Shown here: in pieces, positions 1 to 25,538 of the stretch
Numbering within the stretch: the first letter of the stretch is position 1
Layout: each line of letters begins with the position of its first letter
Assembly (NCBI GenBank): GCA_965655095.1
Contig: OZ296651.1
Coordinates: 53,754,001 to 53,818,000, forward strand
DNA: 64,000 nucleotides
Reading direction: 5' to 3'
Source of the DNA: Haplodiscus bocki
Lineage: Eukaryota
Position numbers and translations under genes: made by a program
Notes under the pieces: model-generated
Databases searched by the model: none
The model's input: only the letters and a program-made list of their open reading frames with translations
What the model was told of the DNA's origin: nothing

Positions 1-100
1 AAACTACCGAATTTTTCTCGAAATCGCACAATTCAGACAACCGATCATTGTAATCAGAAGCAAACAGAAGACAAGAACTTACACTGGCGATATTGTACCC

Positions 101-3100
101 ATGATTGGACACACTACTCTATCTTTCAGCTTTGATTCAGACGGAGAACATCAATTTGAACTACGAATATGGATTACAGAGACACAGACCTCAAACCTAC
201 TCGGAATCGAATTTTGCCGACAATACATTTCGAAACTGCTTTTCGAAATACCCGTCATAGAACTCAAAAACACGGCGAATGCTATCTGCTATGGTAACAT
301 GTGTTCAACAAAACCCTACCCATTCGTTTCCAAAATGCAAACTATCAGAACTCCCCATCAGATCCACATCGATGCCAAAACTTCCAGAGTCTGGAAATAT
401 TCATCAGAAGACAAGTCAAAGAATTTTCCCCCAGGAACCACCTTTGTTCCTCATCGGCACTCAGTTAAATCAGGACTAGACTGTGTTAACGTACTAAGCA
501 CCCAATCCGAAAATTATCTTCCCATTTTGATGGAAAATTACAGAAACCACCAAATAACTCTGAACAAAGAAGTCATTGAATATTCTTCATTCGATATCTC
601 CGACCGTGATCGACCCAAATATCAGATCAGAGACTGTGTTCAGATGGTCAACTCAATTCTAACAGAAAATGATCAGTATAACGAATGTTTTCTTCTTCAC
701 TCCACAGTTCCATGCGAACCTGACATACAAGATAGAATACAAATACTGAACGGGAACGACGAGAAAATTTTCCAAGCCAACACCGCCATCGCCCATTGCA
801 TTTCAGCCGATGCTAAGATGAGTAAAGGATTTGCAGAAACAATCTGCCGTAGAGTAAACGGACTCCAAGAATTTTGCCGAAAAACCAAACCAAATGTAGG
901 CTCAATTATCCCCTACTGGGATCCAGAATCCAATAACTTCATCTACAACCTAGTAACCAAATCGAAATTCTTTGAAAAACCCACGTTAGACAACCTCCGA
1001 ATCTCACTCGAGAACATGAGAGGACATGCTCTACTGAACAACATCACTAAAATTTCAATGCCAAAGATCGGATGCGGACTAGACAAACTCCAGTGGACCG
1101 ATGTTTTCAAACTCATACAAGATACCTTCACATACTCTGGGATTCAGATCCAGATAATTACCAAACGAGAAACAGACTCCCTAAGAAGAAACCCATCATC
1201 CAACAACGAGCGCTATGTAGAAGACGAAGTAGAAAGTTACACAAACGAATGGACCAAAGAACGAGACGAATTGGAAACTGACTTTACCAAAGACTCAAAA
1301 TCTTGCCAACCACCATGCACCGAACAATTTCCTATCTTGAGATCAAAACAACTCAATGATGACCTGATCAACTATTACCTCCAATACCAATCGGAGGATA
1401 TCATGAACCTTATTAAACAATTTGATTTCCGATACACCGACCTAGAAGAAGAAGAACTAGTCACTCTCATTGATATGATCATAGATTCCAGAGAGGTATA
1501 CTCTGAACACAAATTCGACATTGGCCAGACGAAACAGAAATTCCATGTCACCTTGAAACCCATTTCAGAGCTCAGAAAGCAGCGACCTAGCAAATGCCCC
1601 CTTCACCTCAAAGACAAACTAGAAAAACTACTTGGACAACTCCAAGACTCCAGTATCATCCGAGAAATGGGTGATGATGATGAACTAGGATCACTTTTCG
1701 TTAACCCCATCTTACTTCTACCGAAAGCAGATTATGTTAAACTAGTCATCGACGCTAGATACTTGAACTCCATTACCGATCTAACTAAGTATTCATGGCC
1801 ACTAGAACCAGTTCAGATGATTATGAAAAGGATCAATGGCAAATATTTTACAGCAAGCGATCTCTCATGCGCCTATCACCAAGTCCCTCTATCTCCTGAG
1901 AGACAGAAGTTGACAAGTTTCGTAATAGGAGGAAAACAATACACCTATCAAGTTGGATTCTATGGACTTTGTGGTCTACCCCAATGGTTCAGCCGGATGA
2001 TGGCTATCAACTTCGAACCCCTCATCAAGAAGAAGAAAGCTATAACCTACCTTGATGACAACCTACTCCAATCCCACACCAAAGCGGAAATGTTCACAAT
2101 CATTCATGAATACCATCAACTCCTTCGTAAAGGAGGACTTAAAGTAGCCCCGCATAAAACTCATTTCTTCTTCAGGAAAGTAAAATTTCTCGGCCATGTC
2201 ATTTCCGAACAAGGGATTCAACCAGTCGCAAAAAGAGTAAAAGACCTACAGAATCTGAAATCTCCTGAGAGCAAAAGGGATGTAATGAAAGTTCTTGGAT
2301 GCCTAGGCTTTTATAGCTGTTACATCAAGAACCTCCACGTCGATAGTCAACCTTTCTACGAATTGATCAAAGATACTACTCCTTTTAGATGGACCGATCA
2401 GCATGAAGCACTTTTCAAAGAAATCAAAACCAGAATCTCCGAAGACACTATATTGGCAGTACCCTCAACCGAGTACCACTTCTACATACACGTTGACTCT
2501 TCTAACATCGGAACCGGTTGCATACTAGTCTAACAGTTTCCCGAAGGAAAGAGAATTGTCTCATTCAACTCTAGAGTTTTCGACAACGCCGAACAGAAAA
2601 TGTCTACCCTCCATCGAGAATTATGCGGAATAGTATCTGCACTACAAACTTACGAACATTCTATCATTGGATCACCCTTTCCGATCTATCTCTACTGTGA
2701 TCACAAACCCATCCTCTATCTCTGGGGACGAGAAGGACAACTTTCCCATCGATTTTTCAAAGATCAAGTTATCATCACTAAGTTCCACAACCTCAAAATC
2801 ATATGGACGCCCGGATCCAACCTTGCCTTTCCTGACATCCTCACTAGGAACGTGACGTTATCAGAGCCAAACAAACTACAGCCTCAACACAAAGAAATTC
2901 CACACGATATATCGTTCTACGATCAGGACGGACTCAAAGTCCACTACACCATCAAGCACGAAGAAGAACAAAACGCATCTTATAACGACTTTTACCCTAT
3001 CATCTGCCAACAAGGCAACACAAGAAAGACTCTCAGACTTAAAAACGATGGAAATGAACATCATGTTGAAAATTACCTTGAAGATAACGAAGTTCTAGCC

Positions 3101-5382
3101 ACCATGCAAGACATGACCGATTGCTTTAAACTCGGAAAGACAATTAACCAATACAAACAACTTTGCTCCAGCATTAGTCCAGCATCAAGCACCTCTAGTC
3201 TTAATGAACACGACTACAGTGATATTGAACAGTACGATGAAGAATCAACAGATGACGAAATCGAACTAGCAGAACTCCACTTTGAAAGTCAAGACCCTGA
3301 TTTTTGCCGAGATAACTCTGTAGCTCACGAATTGTTCCGTACGAAAACAACAGACAAACCAATTCGAAAAAAACCGACTTGTTTCGAACTATTTCCTCAC
3401 GTAGACACTCCTGATCTGATTCAAAAACTCAGTGATTTTTCTCGTGACGCTGACTTAGACATACAAACACTTTTAGAAGAACAACTCAACGATCCTGTAC
3501 TACAAGTTGTTCGCAAATGGATCAAAACCTCCGATACAAGACCTCAGAAACACCAGACCTTAACCAGTCTAAAGCCCTGTTATCATATTACAGGTTCGAA
3601 CAACTCTTCATCGAACCCGACACTAACCTCCTCTGCTACAAAGAACCAATCCATGACACTTACAAAACTGAGATGAAAATTTGTGTTCCCTTATCTCTCT
3701 TCCTACCCCTTTTCTTTCTAGCCCACACTCACAGCCATAGTGGCCACCCAGGAATATTCAAAACCTTCGAAAATATTAGACAATACTTCTTTTGGCCAGG
3801 ACGATACAAGTGGATAGTATACCTAATAGAAGATTGCATCGAATGCCAAACTAATAAAACGAAAAGACACGACCTACACGAAGCACCATTGGAACAATGG
3901 GGAGAACTAGAAACAACACCTTTCAAGACAATACATATCGAGCATAAAGGACCACTTCGCAGTAACTCCAACACTCATTGTCTTGTCGTAGTGGACGCGT
4001 TTTCGCGGTTTATTGGAGCCTACCCAGTTAGAGACACCGGAGCTCAAACGACCATCAACGCACTAGAAAAATGGATCACATCATATGGTATACCCCAGAA
4101 AATTGTTCATGATAACGGTTCAGCCTTCATAAACAGTGACTTCATTAACTGGACTAAAGAATTCGGAATAACCCTCGCCCCTCGCGCTACCTACTCTCCA
4201 TGGACTAACGGCAAAGTCGAAGTACAAAACCAGCACCTCACTAGATACTGGCGAAATTTCATGAATCAATCTGGAAACAATTGGTCAAAACTTACATCCA
4301 AATTTGCATTCGAATATAACACTAGTGTAAACTATACAACTGGTCAGACGCCTTACGAGATCGTTTTCGGAACGAAACCTTAGGTTCCTATGACTCTTAA
4401 ACTTGGACTACTACGAGATAAAGACAAACAATGCAAATCCGAATTCTGTGATGGACTCCAATCTCATACGCACAGCGAAAACAGCCTGCCGAATACTTTT
4501 ATTAACCGACTACTTCGACCGCAGCTCTCAGACGAACTACTGAAGCGAGAAAATGAATTTAAACGAATTTACTCGTCAACCTATCAGAGATGTGGCCAAA
4601 TTACGTCAAAAGCACACGAGCACCGAAACTGATATAAACTCGGACGAACTATCAGCACTGGACAAAAAGTCTTCTTAGAAAACCACGCGCAAGACCTCTC
4701 GAGGTCTCACAAACTGAAACAACTACGAGTCGGACCGTTTACAGTAACAAAACAAATCACGAATACGACGTACGAAATACGAGAAGACGCAAATCCCGAC
4801 AATGTCAAGACTACGCACAGAAATCACCTAATAGAGTTTTTCCCGAAAGAAGAACGACTCCGTCCGCTTTTTACTAACTATGCCGTCATATCTAGAGACT
4901 CCGATTTCTACAAGCATTTAGTCAACTCGCAAATTGAACAAAATAACTCTGGTGAAGAAAAACACTCCCTTGACGTAATGCCTTTTGCTATAACGCCCAT
5001 TCAAAACAATTCAGATAGTCAACAAAAAGATGATATCGAATTTTCGCTTAGAGCAGACTGTGGAATACATTCGCCTGCTAGTTCATTGCAACAATCACCT
5101 AGAAGCCAAAAATCGAGCCCTTACGAAAATAGAGCATTGTTTCCCCTACCTGAATTTCAATCACAAAATCTGCCCATGACTCCTATGCCCAGACAACCGC
5201 ACGATCTACAAAATACAATACGCGATTCCCAACGTTCGATTTCAAATACCCCACCAAATTCAACTAATTCTACTGATAAAGGCAAAATAGCACATTTCGC
5301 GACAAAAGTCAAAGAAAAGTATAGAAGAAATGATCCTAACAGGTCACTCAGAAGACTAGAAAGAAAGGGATACAAAGACTAA
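101..5382 (+). pseudogene. pol: Disrupted pol polyprotein (protease C-terminal part, macrodomain, RT, RNase H, integrase)
   Basis: RT motifs LVIDARYLN, DLSCAYHQ, YLDD, FLGH. RNase H VDSS, RELCGI, YCDHKP. Integrase HHCC (AHTHSHSGHPG...CIEC), HDNG, NGKVE, GPF. Lesions: TAA 2531-2533, frameshift near 3540-3590, TAG 4381-4383, TGA 4630-4632. Confidence 0.95.
733..1165 (+). other. Macrodomain of the TARG1/OARD1 (Poa1p-like) class, in frame within pol between protease and RT
   Basis: Signature motifs IAHCISADAKMSKGFA, IYNLVTKSKFFEKPT and ISMPKIGCGLDKLQWTDVFKLIQDTF. Confidence 0.9.
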
Positions 5383-5427
5383 AACATTTAATTAACTATT
5401 TACAATATATACAAATCTACTCATCGT

Positions 5428-5919
5428 CTATTTCAATATGGCCCCCGGCTCAGCCAAATGATTTATAATGTCCCGATATTCAAAGGTTTCTTCCCACCTT
5501 TGAATGATCTGCCTTTTGCCGATGTAGCCCAGCATCTCGTAACCCTGCTGGACTGACTCAAGTTTGTGCCACAGCACGTCTCCGTAAGGGGCAACAAAAT
5601 TGGCTAACCACTGAAACAGAACATTATCATTGTAAATCAAACAACATCAACTACCAAAAGAACCAGAACCTTAATGCCACAACTCAAAGAACATCAACTA
5701 AAAGCAACTTGAAGAAACTAAGAGATCACTAATACTTACATCATCCCCGGCGACGACCTCCAGAACTGTGACGAACGATTGAGAGAAACTCATTCGCACC
5801 ATAGCGTCCCGATTAAATAGAGGCATCCTCAACTCCCGGATAATCCCATGTAGTCTAGCCATCTCCCTCGGGCACAAGAAGGCTGCCCACACTTCGCCAT
5901 CGGGAGTCCTATCGGCCAT
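5428..5919 (-). CDS. Predicted spliced antisense accessory gene, 120 aa, unknown function (coding exons 5919-5740 and 5610-5428)
   Basis: GTAAGT donor at 5739 and TTCTGTTTCAG acceptor at 5611 join two short ORFs in frame (VAGDD|WLANF). A further 5'-UTR intron is predicted at 6192-5966. Confidence 0.6.
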
Positions 5920-6272
5920 AATCGAAGAAGACAATAAAATGAAGATAAGAAATCAAAGAAAAGAGCTGAAACACAAGAAAATATGAAATTTCACTTTCAG
6001 GCACCCCCAATGCTAGTTAAAAAATTTTCCCAGACAACAAGTTTCCCGATACATTCTTTTATCATGCTATGCTGATTTCCTTCCCGAACTCCCAAACCAA
6101 ACTTTTCAAAAAATTTAGTTCAACGCCGGTGGGTCTACTCAGTAGTAGAAACAACTTCGTACGTAGTAAAGATAAAGAAATCAGAAACTTACCGTGAATA
6201 ATTCTGGAGGCAGACTGACAAACCCAAAAGAAGAAATATCTTAAAGAAAGAATCCCATCTGTTATACGAAAC

Positions 6273-6306
6273 AACTGACGACAAAACAAGAAGCCTTTGT
6301 CTTATA
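6273..6306 (-). promoter_or_regulatory. Antisense core promoter: TATA box plus initiator
   Basis: TATAAG starts at 6306 and a TCAGTT initiator has its +1 A at 6276, 30 nt apart; followed by a GTAAGT donor at 6192. Confidence 0.55.
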
Positions 6307-6376
6307 CACCCTTTGTTCAACTAGTCTTTTGTCCCACGAACCTTCTTTCTACCCCAACTAGTAAACAAGTCTCTGC

Positions 6377-6568
6377 CTATTGTTCTAACCCTCTATAGTT
6401 CAATGCTTCTATTGTTCTACTCACCTATTGTTCTACACCCTTATTGTTCAACACTTCTATTGTTCAAACCCCCTATTGTCCTAACCTCCCATTGTTCTAA
6501 CTTTCTATTGTTTCACCGTTCTATTGTCTAACCCGTCTTTTGTCCCGCTTACCTATTGTCAAATCCCT
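6377..6568. repeat. 12-unit 16-bp minisatellite with CTATTGTY core (SOX/HMG-box-like sites)
   Basis: Core starts at 6377, 6393, 6409, 6425, 6441, 6457, 6473, 6489, 6505, 6521, 6537 and 6553; spacers divergent. Confidence 0.85.
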
Positions 6569-6935
6569 CAACTATGCTACTGCCTTTGATAAACAATCTT
6601 TTGTCTTTTGTGCTAACACCTCCTGATCCAGCGCCAACCCACATTCCAGAATTCAAGTAAACAATGAATTGACATAAACAAAAATGAAGAACTGATCGTG
6701 CTCAATCATGTCCTACCTAATGAAAATCACAGAACCAAAAAACAAATTTTGCAAAGTCATGCATTTCACGCCTTACAATGATTTTCAGTTGCATGCCTAA
6801 CATAGAAGAAAACCCAAGAAATCTGATCAACTGGTATATCCTTCTCATAGAACCACAGAACTACCTTCACAGAAGACAACATTTTGCCAGAGACCAAAAC
6901 CCACCAAACCAAACAAAGTTGCAGAAACAACTATC

Positions 6936-7175
6936 TTGATGTATTTTAAAATCAATAACACAATCGTTGAGATATTCCAATTTGAAAAGAAAGAACCACA
7001 TTGCATTCTCCGACATACACGAAACCCCCAGACTAGGGAAAAGAAGATATTTGCCATCACAGAAGGAACTCTATACTTTCCATTTTTCGAGACTGTATTC
7101 AAGCTTCCACATGCCATCCCTTCCAATCTACACCTAGCCGAACTAACAACCATAACTAATCACAATGATGTTTGA
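6936..7175 (+). CDS. Small ORF or fragment of unknown function inside element A
   Basis: 79-aa ORF with the same A/C-rich composition as the element's coding strand; no recognised domain. Confidence 0.3.
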   Translation: MMYFKINNTIVEIFQFEKKEPHCILRHTRNPQTREKKIFAITEGTLYFPFFETVFKLPHAIPSNLHLAELTTITNHNDV

Positions 7176-7566
7176 TCTTAACGAAGATATTTATGACGAA
7201 AATAAAATTGAAGAAATTGAACTCAACTGCCCATGGACTATAACCGTACCCTCAGGAGCAAGCCATGACTTTATGATAACAAAACTCAGATGGTCATTTG
7301 ATCACCCATTTTGGCTAACAGCTAATATCTACCCTATTGAAAACCCCGCTAAACCAATAGTCCTTGATATTAAAAGAGAAACCCTTGCCTTCGCAAAACT
7401 TTTCATCACTCTGACTCTCTACAAACGATATCCTGAACCGCATCTCACTCAACACGATATTCACACTCTACGAGAACTAATGGAGAATGCAGAATTTCAC
7501 ATGGGATCTCACACAAGCTACTATATAGAAGAAATAAAGAAGATAATTCAGAATCAATCCAACTGA
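7165..7566 (+). CDS. Accessory ORF, 133 aa, unknown function
   Basis: Open ORF between pol and env with a globular-looking sequence; no recognised domain. Confidence 0.5.
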   Translation: MMFDLNEDIYDENKIEEIELNCPWTITVPSGASHDFMITKLRWSFDHPFWLTANIYPIENPAKPIVLDIKRETLAFAKLFITLTLYKRYPEPHLTQHDIHTLRELMENAEFHMGSHTSYYIEEIKKIIQNQSN

Positions 7567-7577
7567 AAGTCGTCATT

Positions 7578-7852
7578 GCTGATGGTGTCAGCTTGTGTTT
7601 CTTATAGCTAGTGGTGCTAGCTCAATATACTTTACACTGGTGGTGCCAGTGATGTTCGTTACTCCTTTCATTTCAGGTGCATTTACTTTTCTTAGCTAGT
7701 GGTGCTAGCTCAATATCTATTCCACTGGTGGTGCCAGTGACGTTCAGTAATCTTTTCTTTTCAGGTGCATTTACTTTTCTTAGCTAGTGGTGCTAGCTCA
7801 TTATTCTTTCCCTTGGTGGTGCCAGTGATGTTTGTTAACAGTTTCTTTTCAG
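7578..7852 (+). repeat. 88-bp tandem repeat (3 copies) forming TGGTG-loop hairpins, each unit ending in a splice-acceptor-like tract
   Basis: AGCTAG-tggtg-CTAGCT at 7606, 7694, 7782; CACTGG-tggtg-CCAGTG at 7635, 7723 and degenerate at 7811; GCTGA-tggtg-TCAGC at 7578; pyrimidine tract + TTTCAG ending 7676, 7764, 7852. Confidence 0.85.
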
Positions 7853-7934
7853 ATACAAAATAAAATTCTCTCTCAGACGTCTTACTTATACCTTCCTTTT
7901 CAACAGTAACCAATTTTCATTTCAGCAATTTGTT

Positions 7935-8033
7935 CCGGCTTAAACGTGCCGAAGAGTGTCTTCCCGGTTTAGAGTACCGATGTGTCCCGGCTTAAACGTG
8001 CCGAAGAGTGTCTTTCCGGCTTAAAAGCGCCGA
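7935..8033 (+). repeat. Four short CGGY-loop-RCCG hairpin repeats
   Basis: ccggcttaaacgtgccga (x2), ccggtttagagtaccga, ccggcttaaaagcgccga. Confidence 0.65.
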
Positions 8034-8275
8034 CGTGTTTTTCAATTTTTGGCTACAGTCATCTCCCTGGCCAATACTTTCGACTTCAATTCTTTTTAGC
8101 ACCTTGACCAATCATTGTCATAACCTTTCAGTTTCTATGCACCAAAACTCTATATTGCCAAAGAGCTTCAATACAGACCTTCTTCTTCATCCGGTTAGCG
8201 AGTTGCTACTTTCTATTCATTTGGTAACATTTTTCTATTTTAGCTAAAATCGGAGTACCGTTTTCATTTGTGATA

Positions 8276-9616
8276 ATGAATAGTGAAAAGATGGCTATCT
8301 TAGAATGTATTGTATTTCTCTTGATACTAAATGTTTCTATATGTGACAAATACGAACCCAAACTTGACGACATTGCACCTTCTGTTCAAGTATCCCACTA
8401 TGATTGCGGCGAGATGACGGAAAACAACCTCTATTCACTGAACGAAGTTAAACCTTGCAATATGGCACCTCAGAATATTCAGATGAACGATGTGAAACTT
8501 ACTATGTATACCAAACACTTCCGAACTGAGATCAATGCTACAATTTGCCGAATCAAGCACCAGAGAAACAAATTTGATTGCGGGATGCATGATCAGACTA
8601 TTATGGACATTGAACAACCTCAGATAACAAGCGATATAGACCTGACCCCTGAACAATGCAAACAAGCCTCCAAGGGACGATCACTTACTCTATTTGACCG
8701 CAAACTGACTTTTGAATAGGGCAAGAAAGAAATTCATCATAAAATTATTGCAGATAAAGATGATGACAACCGTAACGAATGTGATGGTTACGAATGGATA
8801 ACCAGAGATACTTTTGAAAGTCATATACAAGATATCACTCTGAAAGTAAGAATTAAAGATGGCAAGATATTCAACAGAAATGACCAACTACTACCTTGTG
8901 ATTTGGACGAACTTGGATGCGAAAGCACCTCACTGGACCCATATGCTTATACGTGGAAAGCCCCCGAAAATTGTATCTTATCAGTACTAAAAGAAGACTA
9001 TGCACATATGCTAAAGAATGATAACCACTACTACATAGTCAGTCAGAACACTTCAAAAAACAAATATCTCTTTGAGGTAAAGAATCACCCTCAACATCTT
9101 TGCAACAAACCAACCGCAGTCTACCCAACTACATACGACTCAATGTATGTTGCTATCCACTATGGTGGATTTGATATGAAAACTGGACCAAAACTCAACG
9201 AACTTGGACCCCACCTTTTACAATATCAGAAAAACGCCTTCCTATCGAAACCTGGAAACCTCTACGTCTATAGCCCTCAACCCAAACCAGCGGATCCATA
9301 TTTTAATACATGGTTAAATATGGACTACGAACTACAACAAGGTACAAAGCTTGACTACCTTTTCTTTGAGAGTTCCAGAGCACTACAGGCATCCGAACTA
9401 AATCTACTAAAGAACCAATGTGAACAGGAAAGAATCCAAATTTTTACTATCTTGATGCTATCTCTTGAAAACCCCAGACTCGCTGGATACATGCTTACTG
9501 GAAACAGATCAATGTTCTTGGAGACAGATGGAAGCCTAGCCTGGCTCTACTCCTGCCCTCAACATTATGAGCCAAGAAGGTTACCCCTTCTCCGACCTAG
9601 ATTTTCTTCTATCTAA
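8276..9616 (+). pseudogene. env: env-like viral glycoprotein (chuvirus-G / class III fusogen-like), premature stop and C-terminally truncated
   Basis: Signal peptide MAILECIVFLLILNVSIC; Cys pattern HYDC...KPC...TICR, CESTSLDPYAYTW, HLCNKP..YPT, KLDYL, QCEQER, WLYSC; sequons NAT, NTS, NRS. ORFs 8270-8719 and 8903-9616 are one frame split by TAG 8717-8719. No TM anchor left. Family assignment is by eye. Confidence 0.7.
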
Positions 9617-10025
9617 AGACAACTTCAAAGAGGACGACCTTTTGCAGCTCCCAGAACTACTACCTGAAGAATCAATAACCCCTTCTAACCATACCTCCAT
9701 CACTCACGAACTCGAGGATCTCTCCCTTACACCCACTGACGAACCCACCATTGCCCTAAACATTAGACCCAGGAAACGAAAATCAACTACCCCCTCACGA
9801 CAATTGTTTCATAAACAGAAGAAAAGCGAAGAAGCTACTTCCAAATATACTGCTACCCAAAACCCTCAGTTCCAATTTAATCTGACCTACAAAATTAAAG
9901 AAAATATAAATCAGTGGAGAATAGTATTTTGGGACTCCAAACGACAAGAGTTCACCCTAGAAAACCCATCACTAAACTACCAACGATTATCTGTACCCCT
10001 TAGATCGATTTCAGCATTCTGCTAA
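9567..10025 (+). CDS. Accessory ORF, 152 aa, acidic/Pro-rich N-terminus with basic NLS-like RPRKRKS
   Basis: Open ORF whose stop lies immediately before the TRAF-like ORF; no recognised domain. Confidence 0.55.
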   Translation: MSQEGYPFSDLDFLLSKDNFKEDDLLQLPELLPEESITPSNHTSITHELEDLSLTPTDEPTIALNIRPRKRKSTTPSRQLFHKQKKSEEATSKYTATQNPQFQFNLTYKIKENINQWRIVFWDSKRQEFTLENPSLNYQRLSVPLRSISAFC

Positions 10026-10026
10026 C

Positions 10027-10785
10027 ATGTCACAACCTTCACTAAAAGAGAAATTTGAAGACGAACAACTTCTCAGCACCGCCCTTGCTACGGAACTAGA
10101 AGATGTTAAAAAGACCTTAGCCCAACTCAAACTAGACAAAAGTAAGCCTACACACAAAGGACCGTTCAGCTTAAAACCTGATTACTATATCAATTACTCT
10201 ATTAGAAGGATCTTCGAAGAACTGGATAAACTTGAATCTCGACTAGAGAAACTAGAATCAGGAGAACAACCCCATGATTGGAATCTGTATAAAATTATTT
10301 GGAAGTTAGAAAACTTTTCAGTCGTATTCAACAACGCCAAACAATTTGAAGAGATAGAGAACAAAAACATTGCTGATCCAAACCTAGCACGCGGTTTCTG
10401 CAGCACAGCCTTTCTCAGTAAACCTTATGGCTACAGCTTCCTTATCCGCGCCTTCCCTTATGGATGTGGTCCAGCACTTGGCAAATCAATGTCCATCAAC
10501 ATATCTCTCATAGCCGGACCCTTCGATGATATCCTCCCTTGGCCGTTTAAAGGAACTATCCAAATCAGTGTCTTCAGACAAGACAACTCTGGTTTAATCT
10601 GGACCAACCTTCTAAAACCGAGTGATAAAACTACCCCCTGTTTTGTACGACCATCACCTCTACAACCCAACCCGAGTTGTGGTATTTTCTTCTACCTTCC
10701 CCACGAAGAAATGTGCAAGACGCAGAAGAACCTAATCAAGAATGACAACCTCTATATTCAAATAAAGACTCTTGACTTCCTGTGA
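10027..10785 (+). CDS. TRAF-like protein: coiled coil + MATH (TRAF-C) domain, no RING or zinc fingers
   Basis: Heptads (LATELEDVKKTLAQL, FEELDKLESRLEKLE) followed by TRAF MATH motifs IIWKLENFS, STAFLSKPYGYSFLIRAFPYGCG, MSINISLIAGPFDDILPWPFKGTIQISVFRQD, IKNDNLYIQI. ATG at 10027, intact. Confidence 0.9.
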   Translation: MSQPSLKEKFEDEQLLSTALATELEDVKKTLAQLKLDKSKPTHKGPFSLKPDYYINYSIRRIFEELDKLESRLEKLESGEQPHDWNLYKIIWKLENFSVVFNNAKQFEEIENKNIADPNLARGFCSTAFLSKPYGYSFLIRAFPYGCGPALGKSMSINISLIAGPFDDILPWPFKGTIQISVFRQDNSGLIWTNLLKPSDKTTPCFVRPSPLQPNPSCGIFFYLPHEEMCKTQKNLIKNDNLYIQIKTLDFL

Positions 10786-11050
10786 ACCCCGGTTTCAATT
10801 TCAACAGCTGTGAGTTCCGGGTGAGATGTCGTGTTCGACATACAGCAAAGAAAAAGAAAGAAAAGAAAAACTGTGAAAAACTAAACTTAAAAGTGTAACA
10901 TTTTAAATCTGCCATTTTGACTGCCGTTGCGCAAGTTCGAACATGTCCCCAAATTTGTTGACAAGCCAGAACTAACGCCGCCATGACACCTACCTTATAT
11001 GGACATCGGCGTCACCCAACAAAACAATAGACTCAACTCCCGAGATAATA

Positions 11051-11214
11051 ACGTCATCTGACGTCATCTGACGTCATGTGTGTATTAATATTATGGATAC
11101 TGACGACTCCCAAGTCACGTGACTAGGTCACGTGACTGACGTCATTCTCGGAGCCAATTCTGTGCTACCTCTATTCTGGTTGGCTCCCGAGAGCACAAAA
11201 TTTAGTATATATAG
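11051..11214 (+). promoter_or_regulatory. LTR U3 promoter: CRE/ATF repeats, two GTCACGTGAC E-boxes, CCAAT, TATA
   Basis: ACGTCATCTG repeats giving TGACGTCA sites (11051-11077), GTCACGTGAC x2 plus TGACGTCA (11115-11144), AGCCAAT near 11152, TATATATAG 11206-11214. Confidence 0.7.
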
Positions 11215-11540
11215 CGGACTAAATTCGCCTTTGAGAGACGCATCTTTCCAGCTCAGATCAGATGTCCAACGATCCGTGAAGTCACTCCACCCATTTTCCA
11301 ACATCAGCAGTTTGAGTCCAGTGCAGTATTCTTTGAGCGGTTATGTTTTCACTTTTGCTTTTATTTCTAACTTTTTCTTTGGGTAATACTTTCTTTATAA
11401 TATAACTTTAACTTTCTCTTGATGTAAACTGAACATTTAAGAAACCAAGCTTAACTCTTAACTTATAGAAACAGTAACATTTTTTATGTTTAGCTTAAAT
11501 TTATTCAACTTAACTTTAACTTAAGGCTTGACTGAGCTTA

Positions 11541-11945
11541 ATCTAAAATATAAAATTGTGTATGTGTTAAATCTTCTGTGAGGTGGTCTCGTCAAGAACG
11601 GACTCATCCAGCCTTGGTCACGTACCGGCTTGATATTTGGAAAATACTCAAATCCTCTTTGAGGTAGTCTCGCATGTCGGACTGATTTAGCCTTGGTCAA
11701 GTACCGGCTACTAAAACATTTATTATCTTAAAAATTAACTTTATTTAACTTTAACTTTAATCTAAAATATAAAATTGTGTATGTGTTAAATCCTCTGTGA
11801 GGTGGTCTTGTCAAGAACGGACTCATTCAGCCTTGGTCCCGTACCGGCTTGATATTTGGAAAATACTCAAATCCTCTTTGAGGTAGTCTCGCAAGTCGGA
11901 CTCATTCAACCTTGGTCACGTACCGGTTGCTAAAATACTTATTAT
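11541..11945 (+). repeat. 219-bp tandem duplication holding four copies of a ~51-nt double-hairpin unit
   Basis: Units TGAGGTRGTCTYG...CGGACTSAT...RCCTTGGTC..GTACCGGYT start at 11579, 11660, 11798, 11879. Confidence 0.85.
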
Positions 11946-14441
11946 CACTAAACCTAATACGTTTTCGTACTTTAATATCTTTCTTAAGGTTAATCGATGA
12001 TCCTCTTAGATGTCGTTGTATTCATTATATTTATAATACTTTTCCGCCTTTTTATCTTGCCTTTATGATTTGTACTCTGATTTATTTTGTTAGTCTTGAT
12101 ATCTTAATACTGTTAACCTTTCTGATATTTTGTCTTCCTGAATTTATAGATAATTGTAAGTCACCAGTTGATACTATTTCTGAAAATAATTTATCTGTTG
12201 ATAATAACAAGGTTTCTTCACAATATTCACCAGATAGAAAAAGTCCTTCCTTTCGAACTCACGCCTGAGACGACCTTTGTTGAAGTGCAGGAAGGCAACT
12301 GTCGCAAAATTGAATTAGGAGACTTATCCTGAGTTTCGGGATAGTTTCTGACTTGGAATAGAGTGGCTTTTGAGACTTTCCACTGCTATTTCATCAACCC
12401 ATCACTACACACACAACAGCACTTCACACCAGCAGTCTGTATAATGAGATACAGCTCAATCTCAGTATGAAAGCTGGCTAAAGTCCTCAACTGGGGGTGA
12501 TTACTGAATCCTTTCTTTAGTTCAGTACTCCGCTAAAGGTGAGTCTAAAAACAACATCTTGAAATACGTGAGAGCAACCGAAGTCATTTGGCCATCTTGA
12601 GTACTTCTTCACATCTTGAGCACGTGTGTAGGGATTTCAACTCGGCCAATTAACGTGCCATTTTTTAATTTCAGAATTTTTGCAAGCCTCTGATTTCGAG
12701 TCAACCTTCAAGAGTAAATTCATGAATTTTCTTTCGCACTCACAAGATAGAAAAAGCTTGACAGAAAAACCCCATGATGCACCCAGATCAACAGAAATTC
12801 CCAAGTAGACTCCTGGAAAGTTCTCTATTCCTGGAAGCTGCCTCTCCTTCAGATATCGGTATTTGCACTGCAGGTCTATTAGGTGACTCTTTCCGCTCCT
12901 ACTCAGCTGTGGAGAAGTTCACCGACAGTGAAAACGACAATTGGGAAAAATGCCTGGGCGCTCTTGCAAAACGATACAAGAGGGTCTGGAGAATGAGAAC
13001 GATCACTCATTCAAAAGATTTTCATCGCTATTGAGCAGCGCGAGTCCACGATAGATGAGGCGCTCAGGCAAAATTTGCGCAAAAAATTCAACCTTTCCAT
13101 CGATATCACTCCGACAGACAGAGCAGCGTGGCTGAGCAAGAAATTTTCCAGTCCCGAGTTCGATAAAACGTGAAGACTCATCTGTGGAACAATACACTGC
13201 TTAGGATGACAAATGTTAACTGTTATCACTTAAAGTGGAGTTACTACAGTGTACGCTTATTATGCTACCTCAGGGAGACGCCGAGGTAAGTGAAATAAAC
13301 GAAAATATATATACTTCTGACGTACAAAGAGTGGTCTCAGCAGTGGTTAGGGGAGAAAAAGTTTTCACTTTAGGAGCAAAAACGGATTTAGACACGTGCA
13401 TCAACGACTTGAGAGATTCGAGTCGAGTTAATGGCAGCAAACGGGCAGGAATGAACTTTGTTCGCGTTAAGAGCTCACTAACCCTGTTGCAAGGATTTTT
13501 TGAGAGTGATCCTCTCGTCAGCCTTCCGCGTGGGCAGATCAACAAACAACATGCGGCAAATGTCAAGAGTCGTAGGACCTGATGTTGCCAGAACTAACTT
13601 TGAAAACTCTCAGGTCCTCCAGGAAAAGATTGGTACGGATCAAGTACTTGTCAGTGCCCTTGGGAAAGCTCGAGTGGTGACTCCTGTGGCTAGTATCAAA
13701 GTCGACTTCTGCGAAGTATCCCTTGTTGACCAACCGTACAGTCACTCTGGGTTGAGGAATATTGAAAATGCAACTTGCTCAGTGAGTGAGTCCACGTCAA
13801 TTACCGATGAGCTCAAACCTCCTGAAGAACCTACAACGTGTAATCCTGTATCTGACAGTTCATTTCAAAAATCCAATTCGCTGTGTCGAAGCTGGTCCAG
13901 GGACCCTACTTGTGCCATGAGAAGTTGGAGGTAAATAAGCGTGAAGATTTTTGCAGAATAAATTTTCGTCCCCTTAAAGTGTGTTTTCATGGGTTTGACG
14001 GGATAATCTGACACTTCACCATGAAAATTTAAAATCTCAAAAATCTATGGTACTGCCAACAGCTTTAAATAAACAGGGTACCTAATGGGAAGAGAAAACC
14101 AATGAGTACTAGTCAAATAGGCCGAGAGAGGCCTGTGTTCATGTCTGTTGTACTTATGGAACTAGAGAGCGTGAAGAGACGGCTCAGGAGCAAGTCAGTG
14201 TACGGGGAATCGACTGAAATTACTTCCCACCTTCCAAAATTCTGACCCAACCAAAGTTTCGAAGTCTGCGTCTTCCTCTACATGAGTTTGTCAGTGACCT
14301 GAGTGACTTTTCGCAGATTTTCAGCGAACTGACACAGCGTGCGGCCGCAACTGATGACTTTATTTGGGGCAAAGAGTGTTATTGTGTTATATTATTCCCT
14401 GCATAAGGATCAATCTGTCGCTCAAGCGTATGAGCCGCTAA

Positions 14442-14732: not shown

Positions 14733-16480
14733 TGTCGCAGCACACCTGCGAGGCATGCGGCCAACCCCTTCCTTAGAACAAAGACATCCCAACGGTTCAA
14801 TGAAGAACTTAAAACTATAAACATTACTAATTAGACTCATAATTAATCATTTGTTAGACCATTTCTTAATCATTGTGCATATATACGGACACGTATGAAA
14901 TACGTATCCATAACAAATGCACAGAAAATATCAACTGATCCAAACTAGGACGGAACCGTTACGGAGCAAAATAAGTATTCACAGAGCAATTGTTTCCTTA
15001 AAGGTGCTATTTTTATATTAATTTACTTAATTATCTATTTATTTAGATATCAATATAGATCCACCTTTCTGGTACAATTGCAGTAATTAGTAGTAATAAA
15101 TGCAGTGATTGACTTTTAGAAGTGCTTGTAACAAAGCGGCTTACTCGTAACAAATTGACTCTCGGAGTGAATATTTGTTCCGTACGTGTTCCGTCGTCAC
15201 TAGTTTGGTGACGTCATCAATATTATTTCAACTATGCCGTGCTGCAGTGCTATGGTGAATACGGAGTGACTCCGTATTCACTCCTAATTCGATCACGGCC
15301 GACTAAATTAACTCGTACTACTAGTGGCTACGGAGCGCCTCCGGAGGCCACTAGTAGCAGACTGAATTTTAACTTGTACTACTAGTGGCTACGGAGCTGC
15401 TCCGGAGACCACTAGTAGCTACTAGGCGGAACGAGGAGTAAATTGGTAATTATACTAGTTTCTCCTCATCTCCAAAATACTGAAAGCTTAATTAGATGAT
15501 GGTAATATGAACATGAAGGTGATGATTAAATGTATTTTTATGATGAAATCATGCATTTTGTATTTTATTTTATTTTCTTCATTTTTAGTTTTGTAATTTT
15601 ATTTTACTCTCCTAAGCAAGGAAATTCTTTGAACTTTCCATCTATGGAGTATACAATAAACAACTTGTCGGCGCGGGAATAAACACTTTGATGGCCATCT
15701 CTGACGGATTAGGACCGTCAATTTTCTGTCGAAAGATGGAAAAGGCGCGTCCTATGATGAAAGAGATGGATGGAAAAGTTGTTTATTTCCCGCCTGGGTC
15801 GGCATTTTTAACTTTGATGTGCTGTAGTTGAAAGTATTTTTCCCTATTTGTACTTTGACTTGGCGGGTAAACAATTATGTTTCCCGCCAGGAAAAAGTAT
15901 AAATAGGAGAAATGAAAATACAAGAGACAATTTCTTATTTTTATGATACTGATGATAATAACCCAGTACTCTTAAATTTCCTTCATAACTTTGCCTGTTA
16001 CTGTTAGAACCAAGTTGATTTTCTCAATCCTCAACACAAATAATAAAGTATTACTGACTGATAAAAACTTCTCCTTTAAAATGACAACTCGAAATAAGAG
16101 AAAGTTAGCAGCGTTGAACAAAGAAAAGTGTGAAGAGCACCCTAGGAGCAACTTGGCACAAAACTCAAGCGCTCCTAGATCGCAAGAAGAATACATTACT
16201 CAAGTTTCTGAGGAAATTGAGGGAAGGGTTACAAAAAGACTGTCAAAGGAGTTTAGCAGAACGGAAAACCGCATTCTAGGTGCACTGGCGCGACTTGATG
16301 ACTTTCTGATGAACCCATTGCTACCGGGGTACTCCGGAGCCACTCCGGAGCCCACCCGCAGCGTACTGAGAAATAACCAGGGAACGAATGAGGACGACTC
16401 CCAGAATGATCCTCATCCTGAAGCGGGTCTCTTCCACAGCCAGTCGGCACGAAACGCTGGCCCAGGAGACGACCGCGACA
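14733..16480 (+). repeat. 5' LTR of element B (1748 bp)
   Basis: Direct repeat of 26172-27860; has an extra 61-bp tandem unit within 15301-15420. Confidence 0.97.
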
Positions 16481-16497
16481 TGGTGACAGGAAAATAG
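16081..16497 (+). pseudogene. LTR-encoded ORF start (probable Gag N-terminus) cut off by internal deletion; second copy at 27461-27860
   Basis: MTTRNKRKLAAL... begins inside the LTR and reads across the LTR end and PBS; conserved at protein level in the older LTR copies (14442-14732, 36078-36346). Confidence 0.6.
16481..16490 (+). other. Primer-binding site remnant (TGGTGACAGG)
   Basis: TGG immediately after the LTR terminal CA; priming tRNA not identified. Confidence 0.65.
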
Positions 16498-19400
16498 AGT
16501 CACCAACACCACAGAATCACCCTATACAATCAATAAGAACACACAAATTGCCGATTTCTCCGTAGTCACTCCGGAGCAATCCAAGTTTATCAAACCGGTA
16601 GACATGGCAATCCTGAGCATGATTCCTGAAGGTGACCCAGATTTGATCACATATCTGACTGAACTGCTCAGAACAAACAAATCAGATCAGCAATCCAACA
16701 CCTTTTGGTTTCCGACACCCGAAAATCCTGGCAATACAGACGAGCACACCCCAATTCAGAAACGAATCTTAAAAGAATTGTGTGAATTACAACAAAAGGA
16801 AAAACTGAATCCGAAAGATGACAATGAATCAAGAACTGAATTTTTAAAGCGCTTCGATTGGATAGACACACTGCTTAATGAAAGTGAGAAACACGCAGTT
16901 GAAGACATTCTAGTTGAATACCATGACATATTCGCTAGACACAGAATGGACATTGGGATGAACACGGAATTTAAGGTGAGACTCACACCCAAGGATGACA
17001 AAGCTGTTTACAGCCAAAGCTTACCAATGCCGATCCACCTGAAAGAAGATTTGATTGTTGAACTCGCTCTCATGCATAAATACGGGATCATCACAGTGTT
17101 ACCTTTCTCAAAATACGCAAGTCCCATATTTGCACAGAGGAAACCGAATGGAAAATTGCGTCCTCTTGTGGACCTTAGGAAAATCAACACCCTGACTGCA
17201 GATGATTATACTAACAACAATCACCCAGTCAGCACTTTGTCAGATGCAGCACAACACCTGGCAGGAAAATCCCTATTCTGCAAGCTTGATTGCTCCCAAG
17301 CTTACCACTGTTTGCAGATGGCGGACCAACGGTCAGTAGAGATGCTTGCATTCAATTTTTCTAGCAGAACTTTTGCCTACAAAAGACTTGCACAAGGTCT
17401 CAGCAGATCTGTGTCTGCTTTTTCAAGTTTCATGCGCGAGTACTTGGACCCAGTTGTCAAAGCTGACCAATGTGCTCAATACGTGGACGATATTGGAATT
17501 GCAGCCAACAATGCTACGGATCTTAACCGGAACATTCGGGCAGTCTTCTAGTGCATTCGCAACGCAGGATTAAAACTGACAATTGAAAAGTGCCACTTTG
17601 GAGTCAGGCAAGTTGAATTTCTTGGAAGAACCATTTCATCCGAAGGAGTATCACCACAAGCTCACAAAATTCAAAATTTTCTTGCTAAACTTCGATTCCC
17701 CAAATCAAAAAAGGCATTACAGCGCTATCTGGGTTTCGTAAACTATTACAGAAATTATATTCCCAGAATGGCTGAAAAACTGCATCCGTTCCACAAATTG
17801 CTCAAAACGGAAGTGCCAATCAATATTACGTCACAGTTGAAAGAAACATTTGATTCAGTCAATACAGCTCTCAGTAACGCATGTGAATTAGCACTGAAAC
17901 AACCCATTCCAGGAAAGCAACTTGTCTTAATGACAGATGCCAGCTTCAGAAGTGCCGGATATGCCCTTATGATTGAGGACAATCCCGATCAGAAAATACA
18001 GTCAAAGCGGAAGACGTATGCCCCCGTGGCATTCGGCTCAAAAATTTTTTCCCCTGCACAACTGAAGATGTCGATTTATTCAAAAGAATTTTTAGCAATT
18101 TACATGGCATTCCTCGAATTTGCACACATCTTGTGGGAAGCAACGAAACCAACGATCGTTTTGACTGACAACAAATCCGTCACACGATTTTTCCAGACCA
18201 AAGCAATTCCACCATCTTTGTGGAACGCATGTGATTATGTGATCCAGTTCAATTTCAAAACAGCCCATATCGCCGGTTCAATAAACACAGCAGCCGACTT
18301 CCTTTCACGATTAGAGTTAAAAGTCACAGAAAGAATCTGTCTCAAAATCAGGGAAGATGTGCAAACAACACCAATTGAAGTCACAACATCCTCTTCAGAT
18401 GTTGCAGACGAAGAACAGGTTTTCTTCACGCACACAGACGATCAAAATGAAACTGAAGAGCAGATCTTACAAAGGAAAGAACAATCTCGGCAAAAAGCAG
18501 TAGAATGGGTAGCCAACCAGGAACAATCCTCATTGAAGCCAAGTATAAAAGCATTCACAAAGATCGACGGAAATACTACGGCGTATTCCCTTCATGGAAT
18601 TAAATCAAATGCGAGAATACGAGTCGAGCAAGACGCCGATCTAGTATTGAAGAACTTGAAACTTAAAATACTTGGCCAGCCACACGATGACGTCTTATTG
18701 ACAGCAGATAGACGATTTAAACACTACAAAGCCAATGAGGATCGCATTATCCTCAAAGATGGACTTTTACTCCGGAAATACTACGGAGACACTGGTAGTG
18801 TCAAATACTACCAAATTCTTATACCGAAGCAGCTAGTTAACGAAGTGCTCCGGAGCCTCCACGGAGACTTTGGAAAACACCCCGGAATTACTAAAATGAT
18901 AATTGCCTACAGAGAAAAGTATTATTACCCGAAAATGGCTCAAATGATCAGGGAGTGGGTCATGTCTTGTGAGAAATGCATTCGAGAATTACGGATTAAC
19001 CCGCAATTAAACCGCCCCCCTCTGCAAAACCCAAATGAGCACATTACTGCGCCCGAAGACGCCATGCAAATTGACTTAGTACCGGGATTACCACCATCTG
19101 GCGGCTATGAGAATATTGTGACAGCCATGGATGTATTTTCCCGCTATTTATTTGCATACCCGACAGCAACTCAAGATGCCACCACAATTGCTAAAGTGAT
19201 AATTAACATCATGACTAAGCACGCCTACTTACCAACGACGCTCATCTCAGATAAAGGTACAACCTTTACGTCACATGTAATTAAAGAAGTGGCCGGCGTC
19301 CTTGGTATTACTCTAAAGCACGCCACCACCAAGCACGCTCAAACAATTGGGCTACTTGAGCGATCTCACATGTCAATCAAGCAGTCATTAAAGATTGAGA

Positions 19401-20311: not shown

Positions 20312-20661
20312 ATCGTCAGTCTGCCTGGGTATGTATCCGGAACAGCTACGGACACAAAATGTGGATTTTGGGAATGTGCTACGGAGCGCATCCGGAGCCA
20401 GTACACGTTCCCCTATAGAACTCCGAATAAGTATGTCTCCGGAGTGCCTCCGGAGACATCCCTGAAATTTCCTGAAATTCCCAAAAACAATGGCGACGGA
20501 TACAATACGGAGTACACACAAGCTATTCCGAATGATTTGAGGATACAACGTGGCAACGTACTCAAAGACTACTCAACTCTGTAAAGTGACAGCGGGCTAT
20601 AGACAGTTAACTACGTACTCTAAATACTAAATATAATTTAAAATTCAAATGATATGTCAAG

Positions 20662-25161: not shown

Positions 25162-25538
25162 GATGAACGACGTGGCTTGCTTTCAACTATTACATGGTGG
25201 ATTTATAATTTTATTCATTAATTATCATGATTATTTAATTTGACCGATTTGTCTGCCAGCAATGACGTCAGCAAATATTTCAAGGAGACATTGAGGAGTG
25301 AAACTCAAAATTTTCTCATTGCTAAACCTCATCTTCATTTTGTTTACCAATCATCAACTTCAGTTACACCGCCAATTCAGTGACTCTAACACTTCTACTG
25401 AAACCGCGGGAACTTCAAAGTACTTCCCGCTTAACGGCGCGTGCCGCCTCACGTTTCAGTAAGATCATCACTTTTCAAGTCACTTTGTCAATAAGCAGCA
25501 GCTCTAAAATAATTTAAACTTCATTAAATTTCATTACA

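Follow-up and report, generated by a model that had tools for sequence, protein, structure and literature searches.

The window, a stretch of 64,000 nt from Haplodiscus bocki (GCA_965655095.1, OZ296651.1:53,754,001-53,818,000, forward strand), contains one decayed copy from an abundant retrovirus-like family. At the level of sequence it has been shown that gag, pol with a macrodomain, an antisense gene, ORFs A-C, env, and a TRAF gene constitute a heritable set under purifying selection in this family. We estimate at about 0.6 the probability that the family represents a complex env-bearing Ty3/Gypsy (Metaviridae-type) lineage working like a complex retrovirus.

Extent and state of the element

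The Ty3/Gypsy provirus is about 16.1-17 kb long and the window carries its 3' three-quarters. It starts 3662 nt upstream of the window and ends at position 12428. Thus, the preliminary description, which had assigned positions 1..12275, was right about the element itself, but both its 5' start and its 3' end have to be moved outwards. The 3' LTR (TG...CA; 10827..12428, plus strand) holds a 219-nt internal repeat and is flanked by a 4-bp target duplication (12429-12432), while the 5' LTR, the primer-binding site, and gag are located upstream of the window (L031:6339-9858). The two LTRs of this copy are 95.7-97.2% identical. Paired LTRs, 4-bp target duplications, and a common primer-binding site were found in seven out of seven copies, and in six copies the LTR pairs are 95.4-100% alike. 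A canonical polypurine tract was not evident ahead of the 3' LTR. The family has been recently active. The window copy is defective, with three in-frame stops (2531, 4381, 4630) and a frameshift (near 3590) in pol, and with a stop and a missing 857-nt piece in env. Large internal parts are gone in two of the six other copies. A 128-aa hydrophobic ORF within the LTR (11882-12268) was rejected as a gene, its shared-variant dN/dS of 0.72 being similar to that of the LTR control (0.79). Contigs of unrecorded kind from four runs cover every bin of the element with raised depth at the LTRs, which is a DNA-like pattern.

Co-occurrence and selection

That macrodomain, env, and TRAF belong to a single element, as had been supposed from the window alone, is borne out by the paired LTRs and target duplications and by the arrangement of the other copies. 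Among 26 copies selected by their pol, 25 have the TRAF ORF 5.4-5.7 kb (5.39-5.65 kb) downstream. The 3' order is matched in a divergent sister family (one copy examined of 26 scored), whose env and TRAF are 56% and 29% identical, respectively. Because of this co-occurrence and because the sister family repeats the 3' layout, the gene set is part of one element and not a chance juxtaposition. The dN/dS values across copies, by which the preliminary description had suggested to judge the genes, reveal purifying selection on every ORF including the macrodomain, env, TRAF, and the small ORFs (about 0.06-0.2, off-frame controls >1). Based on shared variants, the values are 0.06-0.10 compared to 1.4-2.2 for the off-frame controls. 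Private variants give 0.5-0.6 (30-copy set), and the copies therefore decay after insertion. For the related pols and for a TRAF of 41% identity (P0119, P0122, P0123), the H. bocki genome contains no close match, and the lineage therefore occurs in other organisms.

Gag, Pol, and the macrodomain

Gag is followed by pol (2..5382, plus strand), which encodes the protease end, a spacer domain, the macrodomain, reverse transcriptase (RT), RNase H, an insert of about 250 aa, integrase, and a tail, so that the PR-RT-RH-IN order is present. A slippery TTTAAAY heptamer is found at the gag end in all six copies located. The best PDB match of the relative P0122 is Ty3 Gag-Pol (RT/RH E 9e-34 versus 1e-22 for foamy virus), the Ty3-type RNase H matches Pfam and has intact acidic motifs, and the RT groups within a long-branched 10-row clade with support of 100/98 (27-row tree without named reference clades). 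The insert between RNase H and integrase (2834..3400, plus strand; dN/dS 0.11) did not match in the Pfam scan, but P0121-P0123 contain a counterpart, and P0315 and P0317 a weakly matching one. The spacer ahead of the macrodomain appears dUTPase-like by eye, yet Pfam gave no match and the assignment was rejected.

The macrodomain (779..1162, plus strand) lies between protease and RT. It matches human TARG1/OARD1 structures (E 5e-27) and both catalytic-dyad positions (Lys, Asp) are matched in the TARG1 alignment, in agreement with the TARG1-class macrodomain in pol already noticed in the preliminary description. The TARG1 dyad consists of Lys84 and an acidic residue at position 125, which is written Glu125 in PMC7050489 whereas residue 125 of the TARG1 PDB chain is an Asp. 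As judged from its sequence, the domain belongs to the TARG1 class and not to the MacroD class of RNA viruses. Its dN/dS is 0.13 (5 rows), and the dyad is present in four out of four other copies in which the macrodomain was located and kept in most of the sister-family members among those listed. The GCG loop has been lost in P0122 and P0123, and P0123 is also without the Asp context. A macro domain was found in 15 of 82 long pol proteins of LTR elements, 11 of these 15 having it after the RT, and the macro-bearing pols of other elements (P0124, P0125-P0128) sit in other RT clades. The five nearest outgroup pols, some of them partial, did not match a macro domain. Given these missing matches and the GCG loop lost in P0122 and P0123, the macrodomain seems to be dispensable across the wider clade.

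Env and an intron fossil

The env gene (8276..9616, plus strand) encodes a class III (chuvirus/gB-type) glycoprotein. The window copy is interrupted by a stop at 8717 and is without the C-terminal half including the membrane anchor, but still matches Monjiviricetes_fusion (PF24664) with an E-value of 3e-10. Two other copies have an uninterrupted env of 705 aa matching the same family (E 3e-44 and 2e-42), which confirms the env-like glycoprotein of the earlier account. Env has hydrophobic N- and C-terminal segments (signal peptide, membrane anchor) and 17 cysteines in frame, and the sister env scores 0.96 in the Atlas to chuvirus-type clusters. A furin site was not found and the PDB sequence search gave no match to env. 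The dN/dS values are 0.07-0.22 in the 5' parts and 0.06, based on shared variants, in the 3' part. Purifying selection on env makes it likely that the life cycle includes an enveloped step.

At positions 9562..9563 (plus strand) a splice junction has been fixed in the DNA: an 857-nt GT-AG intron is cleanly absent, and the junction does not show microhomology. This segment was located in 27 of 29 other copies, starting with GT in all 27 and ending with AG in 26, and a branch-point-like CTAAT is present about 20 nt upstream. At the corresponding gap between env and ORF C, a pyrimidine-rich AG is present in the sister family. Since the piece missing from the window env is a precise GT-AG intron, the RNA must have been spliced with the acceptor just before ORF C. 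The DNA copy thus shows that the host splices the element's RNA at this acceptor.

The RING-less TRAF and its host counterparts

Adjacent to the 3' LTR (start at 10827), an ORF of 252 aa (10027..10785, plus strand) encodes a helical N-terminus and a MATH domain (TRAF-mep_MATH, E 1e-17). RING and zinc-finger domains did not match in the Pfam scans of the 269-aa and 497-aa frames, and the preliminary description of a RING-less MATH ORF next to the LTR was accurate. The best PDB match is TRAF5 (E 3e-14), and the domain composition of the ORF is TRAF1-like by sequence. The shared-variant dN/dS is 0.10, and 0.06 for the MATH part. In the alignment the peptide-binding groove of the MATH domain has diverged from TRAF1/2. 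The heptads of the putative coiled coil were read by eye. The single-sequence model of the sister TRAF has a pLDDT of 35.5, too low to be used. The host genome contains one TRAF zinc-finger match. As no MATH exon is present in the surrounding 4-kb stretch, the search for the donor gene gave no result. In addition, 31 PARP-domain matches were obtained in the host genome, many of them in very long frames.

Small ORFs, antisense gene, and repeat arrays

At least three further small ORFs, one of them spliced and antisense, had been proposed. ORFs A, B, and C and a two-exon antisense ORF are indeed present and under selection, the splicing of the latter being predicted. ORF A (78 aa; 6939..7175, plus strand; dN/dS 0.17) and ORF B (133 aa; 7165..7566, plus strand; dN/dS 0.16), which overlaps the end of ORF A, belong to no known family. 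Both have two sister-family homologues each (z 6.8 and 3.3 for ORF A, 7.1 and 3.2 for ORF B). The 46 codons upstream of the ORF A methionine were rejected as coding (dN/dS 1.19). ORF B is modelled with four strands and three helices (pLDDT 75.8); the best hit of its fold search has a Z of 4.8 with none at or above 5 among 48,161 chains, BFVD gave no match at E 0.001, and the Atlas matches are all below 0.8. ORF C (152 aa; 9567..10025, plus strand; shared-variant dN/dS 0.10) has an acidic N-terminus, a basic NLS-like patch, and a conserved C-terminal domain of 70 aa. Its sister homologue is 39% identical over 72 aa (z 18), and the 120 matches listed of 353 in the profile search look like both families and near kin. 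It matched neither Pfam nor any known regulator. ORF C is a candidate nuclear regulator.

The antisense gene (minus strand) consists of exon 1 with 60 codons (5740..5919; dN/dS 0.07), a predicted intron of 129 nt with three in-frame stops (5611..5739), and exon 2 with 60 codons and a stop (5428..5610; dN/dS 0.11). The GT donor is present in five and the AG acceptor in six of six covered rows. In the sister family, exon 2 has a homologue in an antisense ORF that is not spliced (z 8.2, 0/300 shuffles). Exon 1 has no significant match to this ORF, and an ungapped register test was negative. The antisense intron is absent among the 15 joints listed of about 950, which has no bearing on expression. 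Another antisense ORF (6062-6301) was rejected (dN/dS 1.14).

Of the several structured-RNA arrays of the preliminary description, the 88-nt array finds support in its hairpins and a compensatory change, but not the two others. It comprises three repeats (7578..7868, plus strand) with seven short hairpins, in which three different stems surround one TGGTG loop sequence. Pairing is retained by one compensatory change in two and by a G-U change in one of the five other copies; the fold of the region as a whole has a z of only -1.1. The array could be a packaging or export signal. The 16-nt array (ten repeats; 6377..6533, plus strand) between the divergently oriented antisense gene and ORF A folds no better than shuffles (z +0.7), and the same holds for the 29/52-nt repeat (7928..8033, plus strand; z -0.2). 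An ATTGT cluster with 6-12 occurrences per 200 nt is present in all six family copies examined, compared to two occurrences in the sister family, and the 16-nt array may be an internal promoter or enhancer. The Rfam scan of the element did not give any match.

Proposed life cycle and alternative explanations

If the family works like a complex retrovirus, a -1 frameshift would yield Gag-Pol, and env, ORF C, and TRAF would be expressed from spliced RNAs, of which we are fairly confident. By analogy to the Drosophila errantiviruses, Env would probably let particles enter other cells, most simply from soma to germline. The macrodomain, being part of Pol, would be carried in the particle and strip ADP-ribose off the element's RNA, cDNA ends, or enzymes; it probably is an active ADP-ribose eraser. 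Whether an antiviral PARP or a DNA-damage PARP would write the mark is about even. The RING-less TRAF might form trimers that occupy TRAF-binding sites or host TRAFs but have no ubiquitin-ligase output. Stress, death, or immune signalling of the producer cell would thus be damped, although we would bet slightly against this. More tentatively, ORF C or the antisense protein may, by analogy, act as a transactivating or Rev/CERV-like regulator, the cis signal being the hairpin array. The array is located upstream of the env acceptor and would therefore be absent from the env, ORF C, and TRAF messages.

Immune evasion by the accessory genes is plausible, and DNA/RNA-end protection, RNA export, and control of cell survival are live rivals to it. 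In a strong form, the reading of the preliminary description would make the macrodomain and TRAF a dedicated two-arm immune-evasion kit, directed at antiviral ADP-ribosylation and at innate signalling through TRAFs, and the lineage would be infectious between animals. All parts of such a kit are real and under selection, the host PARP-domain frames are long and expanded and at least one canonical TRAF exon exists, and the related pols and the TRAF of 41% identity (P0119, P0122, P0123) point to other host organisms. However, the macrodomain is of the TARG1 and not of the viral MacroD class (PMC7050489), macro domains recur in many LTR-element pols, and gB-env elements mostly follow the host phylogeny (PMC13524379), so that we regard this reading as unlikely. 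It is possible, though still short of probable, that the accessory genes are instead there for replication and cell fate, with the macrodomain clearing PARP marks from cDNA ends at integration and TRAF driving survival, proliferation, or timed death of the producer cell for release. TARG1 removes ADP-ribose from DNA and RNA ends (PMC7050489), the PR-RT slot is filled by a dUTPase in Burro (PMC6431247) and in rotifer elements (PMC5408684), MATH is paired with BIR and BCL2-like motifs in Burro (PMC6431247), and the viral TRAF ISKNV ORF111L triggers caspase-8 apoptosis (PMC3352826). This explanation leaves the expanded host PARP set unaccounted for, and overlaps with the complex-retrovirus reading to an extent that sequence alone does not separate.

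The extra ORFs could also be regarded as passengers or separate insertions in an ordinary Gypsy element, given that capture of extra ORFs is common in LTR elements (PMC5408684) and that two of six other copies have lost large internal parts. This is refuted by the shared-variant dN/dS of 0.06-0.10 versus 1.4-2.2 off-frame, by the matching order in the sister family at 29% TRAF identity, and by the co-occurrence in 25 of 26 copies, and we give it hardly any weight. In its boldest form, the complex-retrovirus reading would place these elements within or beside the Metaviridae as a new, long-branched lineage of complex retroviruses of invertebrates, still active and infectious. Such elements would have a complete programme of splicing, an antisense gene resembling HBZ, Rev-like export on the hairpin array, and one antagonist each for ADP-ribosylation and for TRAF signalling. 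All of this together is doubtful. If true, retroviral genome complexity would have arisen independently in a Gypsy lineage against invertebrate innate immunity. Accessory complexity of the HTLV/foamy-virus type is rarely documented among invertebrate LTR elements, whereas in this one genome at least five accessory genes and env are maintained by selection in at least two abundant families. Genes kept at such cost point to host pathways restricting the element, and the family makes it possible to test whether ADP-ribosylation and TRAF signalling affect retroelements in this little-studied animal. The family also supplies four small protein families without known relatives, and the rare intron fossil maps one splice site without RNA data.

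Comparison with known systems

Accessory genes beyond gag, pol, and env are known from complex vertebrate retroviruses such as HTLV-1 with its antisense gene HBZ. Spliced accessory genes in an LTR element are also found in Cer1 of Caenorhabditis elegans with CERV (PMC10309623). The parallel lies in the antisense gene and in the probable splicing of accessory genes; no match in sequence or fold was seen for ORF A, ORF B, ORF C, or the antisense protein.

Gypsy elements with gB-type env are widespread and mostly track the host phylogeny (PMC13524379). The 'ancient errantiviruses' of Chary and Hayashi (PMC13524379) share the Ty3/Gypsy pol, the gag-pol-env order, a class III env that has a signal peptide and a C-terminal anchor, and many similar genomic copies with the H. 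bocki element (compared by text). The latter, however, has seven ORFs in addition to gag-pol, env being one of them. Macro, TRAF, and MATH are absent from the main text of that paper, and in seven supplementary files only unrelated words match. The planarian Burro/GYPSM1 elements combine a mononegavirus-like env with MATH_TRAF_C, which in one species has an accessory ORF of its own, and interference with apoptosis and ubiquitination of the host has been suggested for them (PMC6431247). They are larger than 30 kb, encode one giant polyprotein in which env is placed in frame between gag and pol, and carry BIR, BCL2, ankyrin, and SUMO-like motifs, and the available part of their account does not mention a macro domain (PMC6431247). 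In contrast, env of the H. bocki element is a separate ORF 3' of pol, TRAF adjoins the 3' LTR, and the Pfam scans detected no BIR, BCL2, or ankyrin domains. Troyka and Odin were rejected as identities, neither carrying an env in the available parts of their descriptions. A dual RNase H, made up of a degenerate tether and a new RH, marks Odin, lokiretroviruses, and Retroviridae; in the H. bocki pol, the Ty3-type RNase H is followed by the insert that had no Pfam match.

TARG1-like domains are also present in other Gypsy pols (P0125-P0128 of the aphid Uroleucon, and P0124), but in these the macro domain mostly follows the RT, the RTs belong to other clades, and a link to env or TRAF is not known. 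Fish ERVs with macro-domain ORFs have been reported (PMC4977317). A virus-borne TRAF homologue is known in ISKNV ORF111L, which differs in coming from a fish DNA virus and in being pro-apoptotic through TRADD (PMC3352826). In the literature covered, mainly open papers and with Repbase, Dfam, and GyDB outside the scope, no description of macro, env, and TRAF in one element was found. The preliminary description put the novelty too high, given Burro with env and MATH_TRAF_C and the macro ORFs of fish ERVs. The individual parts have precedents, and the 857-nt intron fossil is new here.

Structure and copies of the element

Of the LTR element described here, only the 3' portion lies inside the window. 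Its 5' LTR, primer-binding site and gag (an open 439-codon frame) are located directly upstream (L031:6339-9858), and the 3' LTR spans 10827-12428. This copy is 16.1 kb long, its LTRs end TG...CA and are 95.7-97.2% alike, and a 4-bp duplication is found on both sides. According to Pfam, pol has the domain order PR-RT-RH-IN of the Ty3/Gypsy type and env matches Monjiviricetes_fusion. The macrodomain in pol (779-1162) matches human TARG1 with an E-value of 5e-27, and both Lys and Asp of the catalytic dyad are present. The last ORF encodes a TRAF-type MATH protein, in which Pfam and PDB comparison found neither RING nor zinc finger. With three stops and one frameshift in pol, and one stop in env, this copy is dead. 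Similar elements may fill acoel genomes. The window (C4:53754001-53818000) belongs to an animal-type assembly of 1.5 Gb.

Searching the genome with the TRAF-LTR junction gave 991 candidates, of which 40 were scored; all 40 align over nearly the full 1441 nt at 88% identity or above. With the TRAF protein as query there were 3388 candidates, and the 150 that were scored all show 74-100% identity. Six further copies, picked among the top plus-strand TRAF matches, were read. Four are collinear from end to end, and two have large internal deletions, yet retain env, ORF C and TRAF between the LTRs. All seven copies have 4-bp target duplications and an identical primer-binding site. For an independent test of co-occurrence, 26 copies were selected on pol alone: 18 are stop-free over about 1886 codons, and a same-strand TRAF match follows 5.39-5.65 kb downstream in 25. 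In six copies the two LTRs are 95.4-100% alike, and in one of these they are identical, which indicates that the family moved recently. In two of the six further copies the env frame is uninterrupted (705 aa from Met, hydrophobic at both ends); a furin site is absent from both frames. Elsewhere, five TRAF-ORF matches with a fixed spacing of 2791 bp (G000:C10:65794019-65805923) mark a tandem amplification of a TRAF-bearing unit, and near-identical TRAF matches every 11-15 kb (G000:C1:132547435-132574891 and C4:13972577-13984755) are tandem or duplicated elements.

Selection on the reading frames

Selection was estimated by a simple tree-free count of the codon variants that natural copies show in each column, split into private and shared variants. 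In 28-30 copies, TRAF and ORF C both have a shared-variant dN/dS of 0.10 (for TRAF, 53 N and 140 S, with 0.06 in its MATH part), and the 3' part of env has 0.06; the Fisher p-values for TRAF, ORF C and env are 2e-18, 2e-7 and 7e-19. Private variants in the same copies give 0.5-0.6, and the controls behave, with 1.4-2.2 off-frame and 0.79 in the LTR. The remaining frames were compared in 5-7 copies with all variants pooled, resulting in 0.13 for the macrodomain, 0.10 for RT and 0.11 for the RH-IN insert. Antisense exons 1 (5740-5919) and 2 (5428-5610) have values of 0.07 and 0.11, ORFs A and B of 0.17 and 0.16, and parts of env of 0.22 and 0.07. Thus, macrodomain, env, TRAF and small ORFs are under selection across copies (0.06-0.22). 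Small accessory genes were put forward in the preliminary description, and as such ORFs A-C and the antisense gene stand; three other frames failed the dN/dS test and were dropped. A short frame ending on the ORF A start codon (6724-6939) shows a weak signal of about 0.3 in a six-frame scan and is possibly a further small gene.

Splicing

A piece of about 857 nt is missing from the window copy at 9562/9563 and present in all six further copies read. Both its flanks were located in 27 of 29 copies (six additional rows were duplicates and left out); it starts with GT in 27/27 and ends with AG in 26/27. A branch-point-like CTAAT is located about 20 nt upstream, and the junction shows no microhomology. 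The simplest reading is that the window copy was reverse-transcribed from partly spliced RNA. The donor may be cryptic because its GT coincides with an env Val codon. The acceptor, in the non-coding gap after env and 4 nt before the ORF C Met, is probably the normal acceptor of ORF C; a site resembling an acceptor occupies this position in the sister family as well. A further acceptor-like site is found ahead of env (7/7 copies), and a doubtful one, inside ORF C, ahead of TRAF (AG in 25/30 copies). The intron of the antisense gene is predicted: GT is present in 5/6 and AG in 6/6 copies, three stops interrupt its frame, and the exons next to it are both under selection.

Sister family and repeat arrays

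The database pol P0121 carries the same macrodomain, is 79% identical in the RT region, and has 617 cluster members; 26 scored genomic copies match it at 97-99%, 17 of them stop-free. The 3' layout of the sister family was read from one copy, L050, whose order (antisense ORF, small ORFs, env, ORF C, MATH ORF) is that of the window element, at identities of 56% for env, 39% over 72 aa for ORF C and 29% for the MATH ORF. ORF A and ORF B have two homologues each in L050, and antisense exon 2 is homologous to its unspliced antisense ORF (small-ORF matches: z 3.2-18, score reached by 0-3 of 300 shuffles). L050 also contains a 140-aa sense ORF directly after pol (252-719), for which no counterpart was found in the window's family, and its ORF C has no Met and starts at a splice-acceptor-like site (5588-5610), as a second coding exon would. 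The best genomic matches of the relatives P0122, P0123 and TRAF P0119 reach at most 69%, 66% and 49%, and these proteins therefore derive from other organisms. In an RT tree built without named reference clades, the element groups with three close relatives (98/99) inside a long-branched clade (100/98). In P0358, a relative of 2790 aa from this RT clade, a macro-like domain is found at the C-terminal end instead.

The structured-RNA arrays described earlier hold in part. The 88-nt array consists of seven hairpins with three different stems and one common loop sequence; two of five other copies show a compensatory change, the fold z of the whole region is only -1.1, and the array is absent from L050. 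The fold test gave no RNA structure for the 16-nt and 29/52-nt arrays. The 16-nt array separates ORF A from the divergently oriented antisense gene, and its repeated motif is a putative Sox site; a promoter here is a lead only.

Proposed mode of action and possible immune evasion

In the following steps, a heptamer, the splice fossil and the matches in the host genome were observed, and we infer the rest. Full-length RNA would yield Gag, and also Gag-Pol through -1 frameshifting at the heptamer TTTAAAY (6/6 copies in which it was located); spliced RNAs would yield Env, C and TRAF. Unspliced RNA would have to be exported and packaged efficiently, because the splice sites are functional yet 27/27 other copies retain the intron. 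A Rev/CERV-like protein is the solution known from Cer1 (PMC10309623), and the best candidate for such a role would be ORF C with its basic patch. Because env is under selection, an enveloped step would precede most new insertions. As part of Pol, the macrodomain would be at hand while reverse transcription and integration take place; TARG1 strips ADP-ribose from proteins as well as from the ends of nucleic acids (PMC7050489). The RING-less TRAF would most simply be a decoy. Alternatively, it may drive apoptosis, as a fish-virus TRAF does (PMC3352826). PARP domains are matched 31 times in the genome and a TRAF zinc finger once, so both target pathways appear to exist in the host. At least nine of the PARP-domain matches lie in open frames of more than 1600 codons; the PARP set is expanded and intron-poor.

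The element is real, multicopy and selected, an env-bearing Gypsy element about as complex in its make-up as the complex retroviruses, and the earlier claim that macrodomain, env and RING-less TRAF belong to one element is borne out by the pol-selected copies and L050. An immune-evasion role is a fair hypothesis. In its strong form, with a two-arm kit against antiviral ADP-ribosylation and TRAF signalling in a lineage infectious between animals, it is doubtful. A TARG1-like domain accompanies RT in 15 of 82 long pol-like proteins, aphid elements included, and follows RT in 11 of the 15, mostly in other RT clades; the five nearest outgroup pols show no macro domain, and two relatives have a degenerate macrodomain active site. 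Since it recurs, is not seen in the nearest outgroups and is degenerate in two relatives, the domain is, on these comparisons, a losable pol add-on and not the mark of true viruses for which it had been taken. We put the probability of a lineage of active, infectious invertebrate complex retroviruses with separate ADP-ribosylation and TRAF antagonists at about one in four.

Other elements and known systems

A second, unrelated Gypsy element occupies 14733-27742, with pol at 16487-20311 and two long repeats that are 99-100% identical and spaced by 11.4 kb. Its three minus-strand ORFs of 219-499 aa (20662-24039) have no Pfam match and are candidate antisense accessory genes. A duplicated unit at 45261-46326 with a tRNA-like piece (Rfam tRNA 45959-46032, 35 bits) and TGTT runs is probably a SINE.

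In the papers searched, as distinct from curated repeat libraries, no description of macro, env and TRAF in one element was found. Troyka, Odin and a preprint on chromatin evolution (10.1101/2021.11.30.470311) do not apply, as far as the available excerpts go. Gypsy elements whose env is of the gB type occur widely among animals (PMC13524379), fish ERVs carry macro ORFs (PMC4977317), and rotifer elements have captured varied extra ORFs (PMC5408684). Burro combines MATH_TRAF_C with a mononegavirus-like env (PMC6431247).
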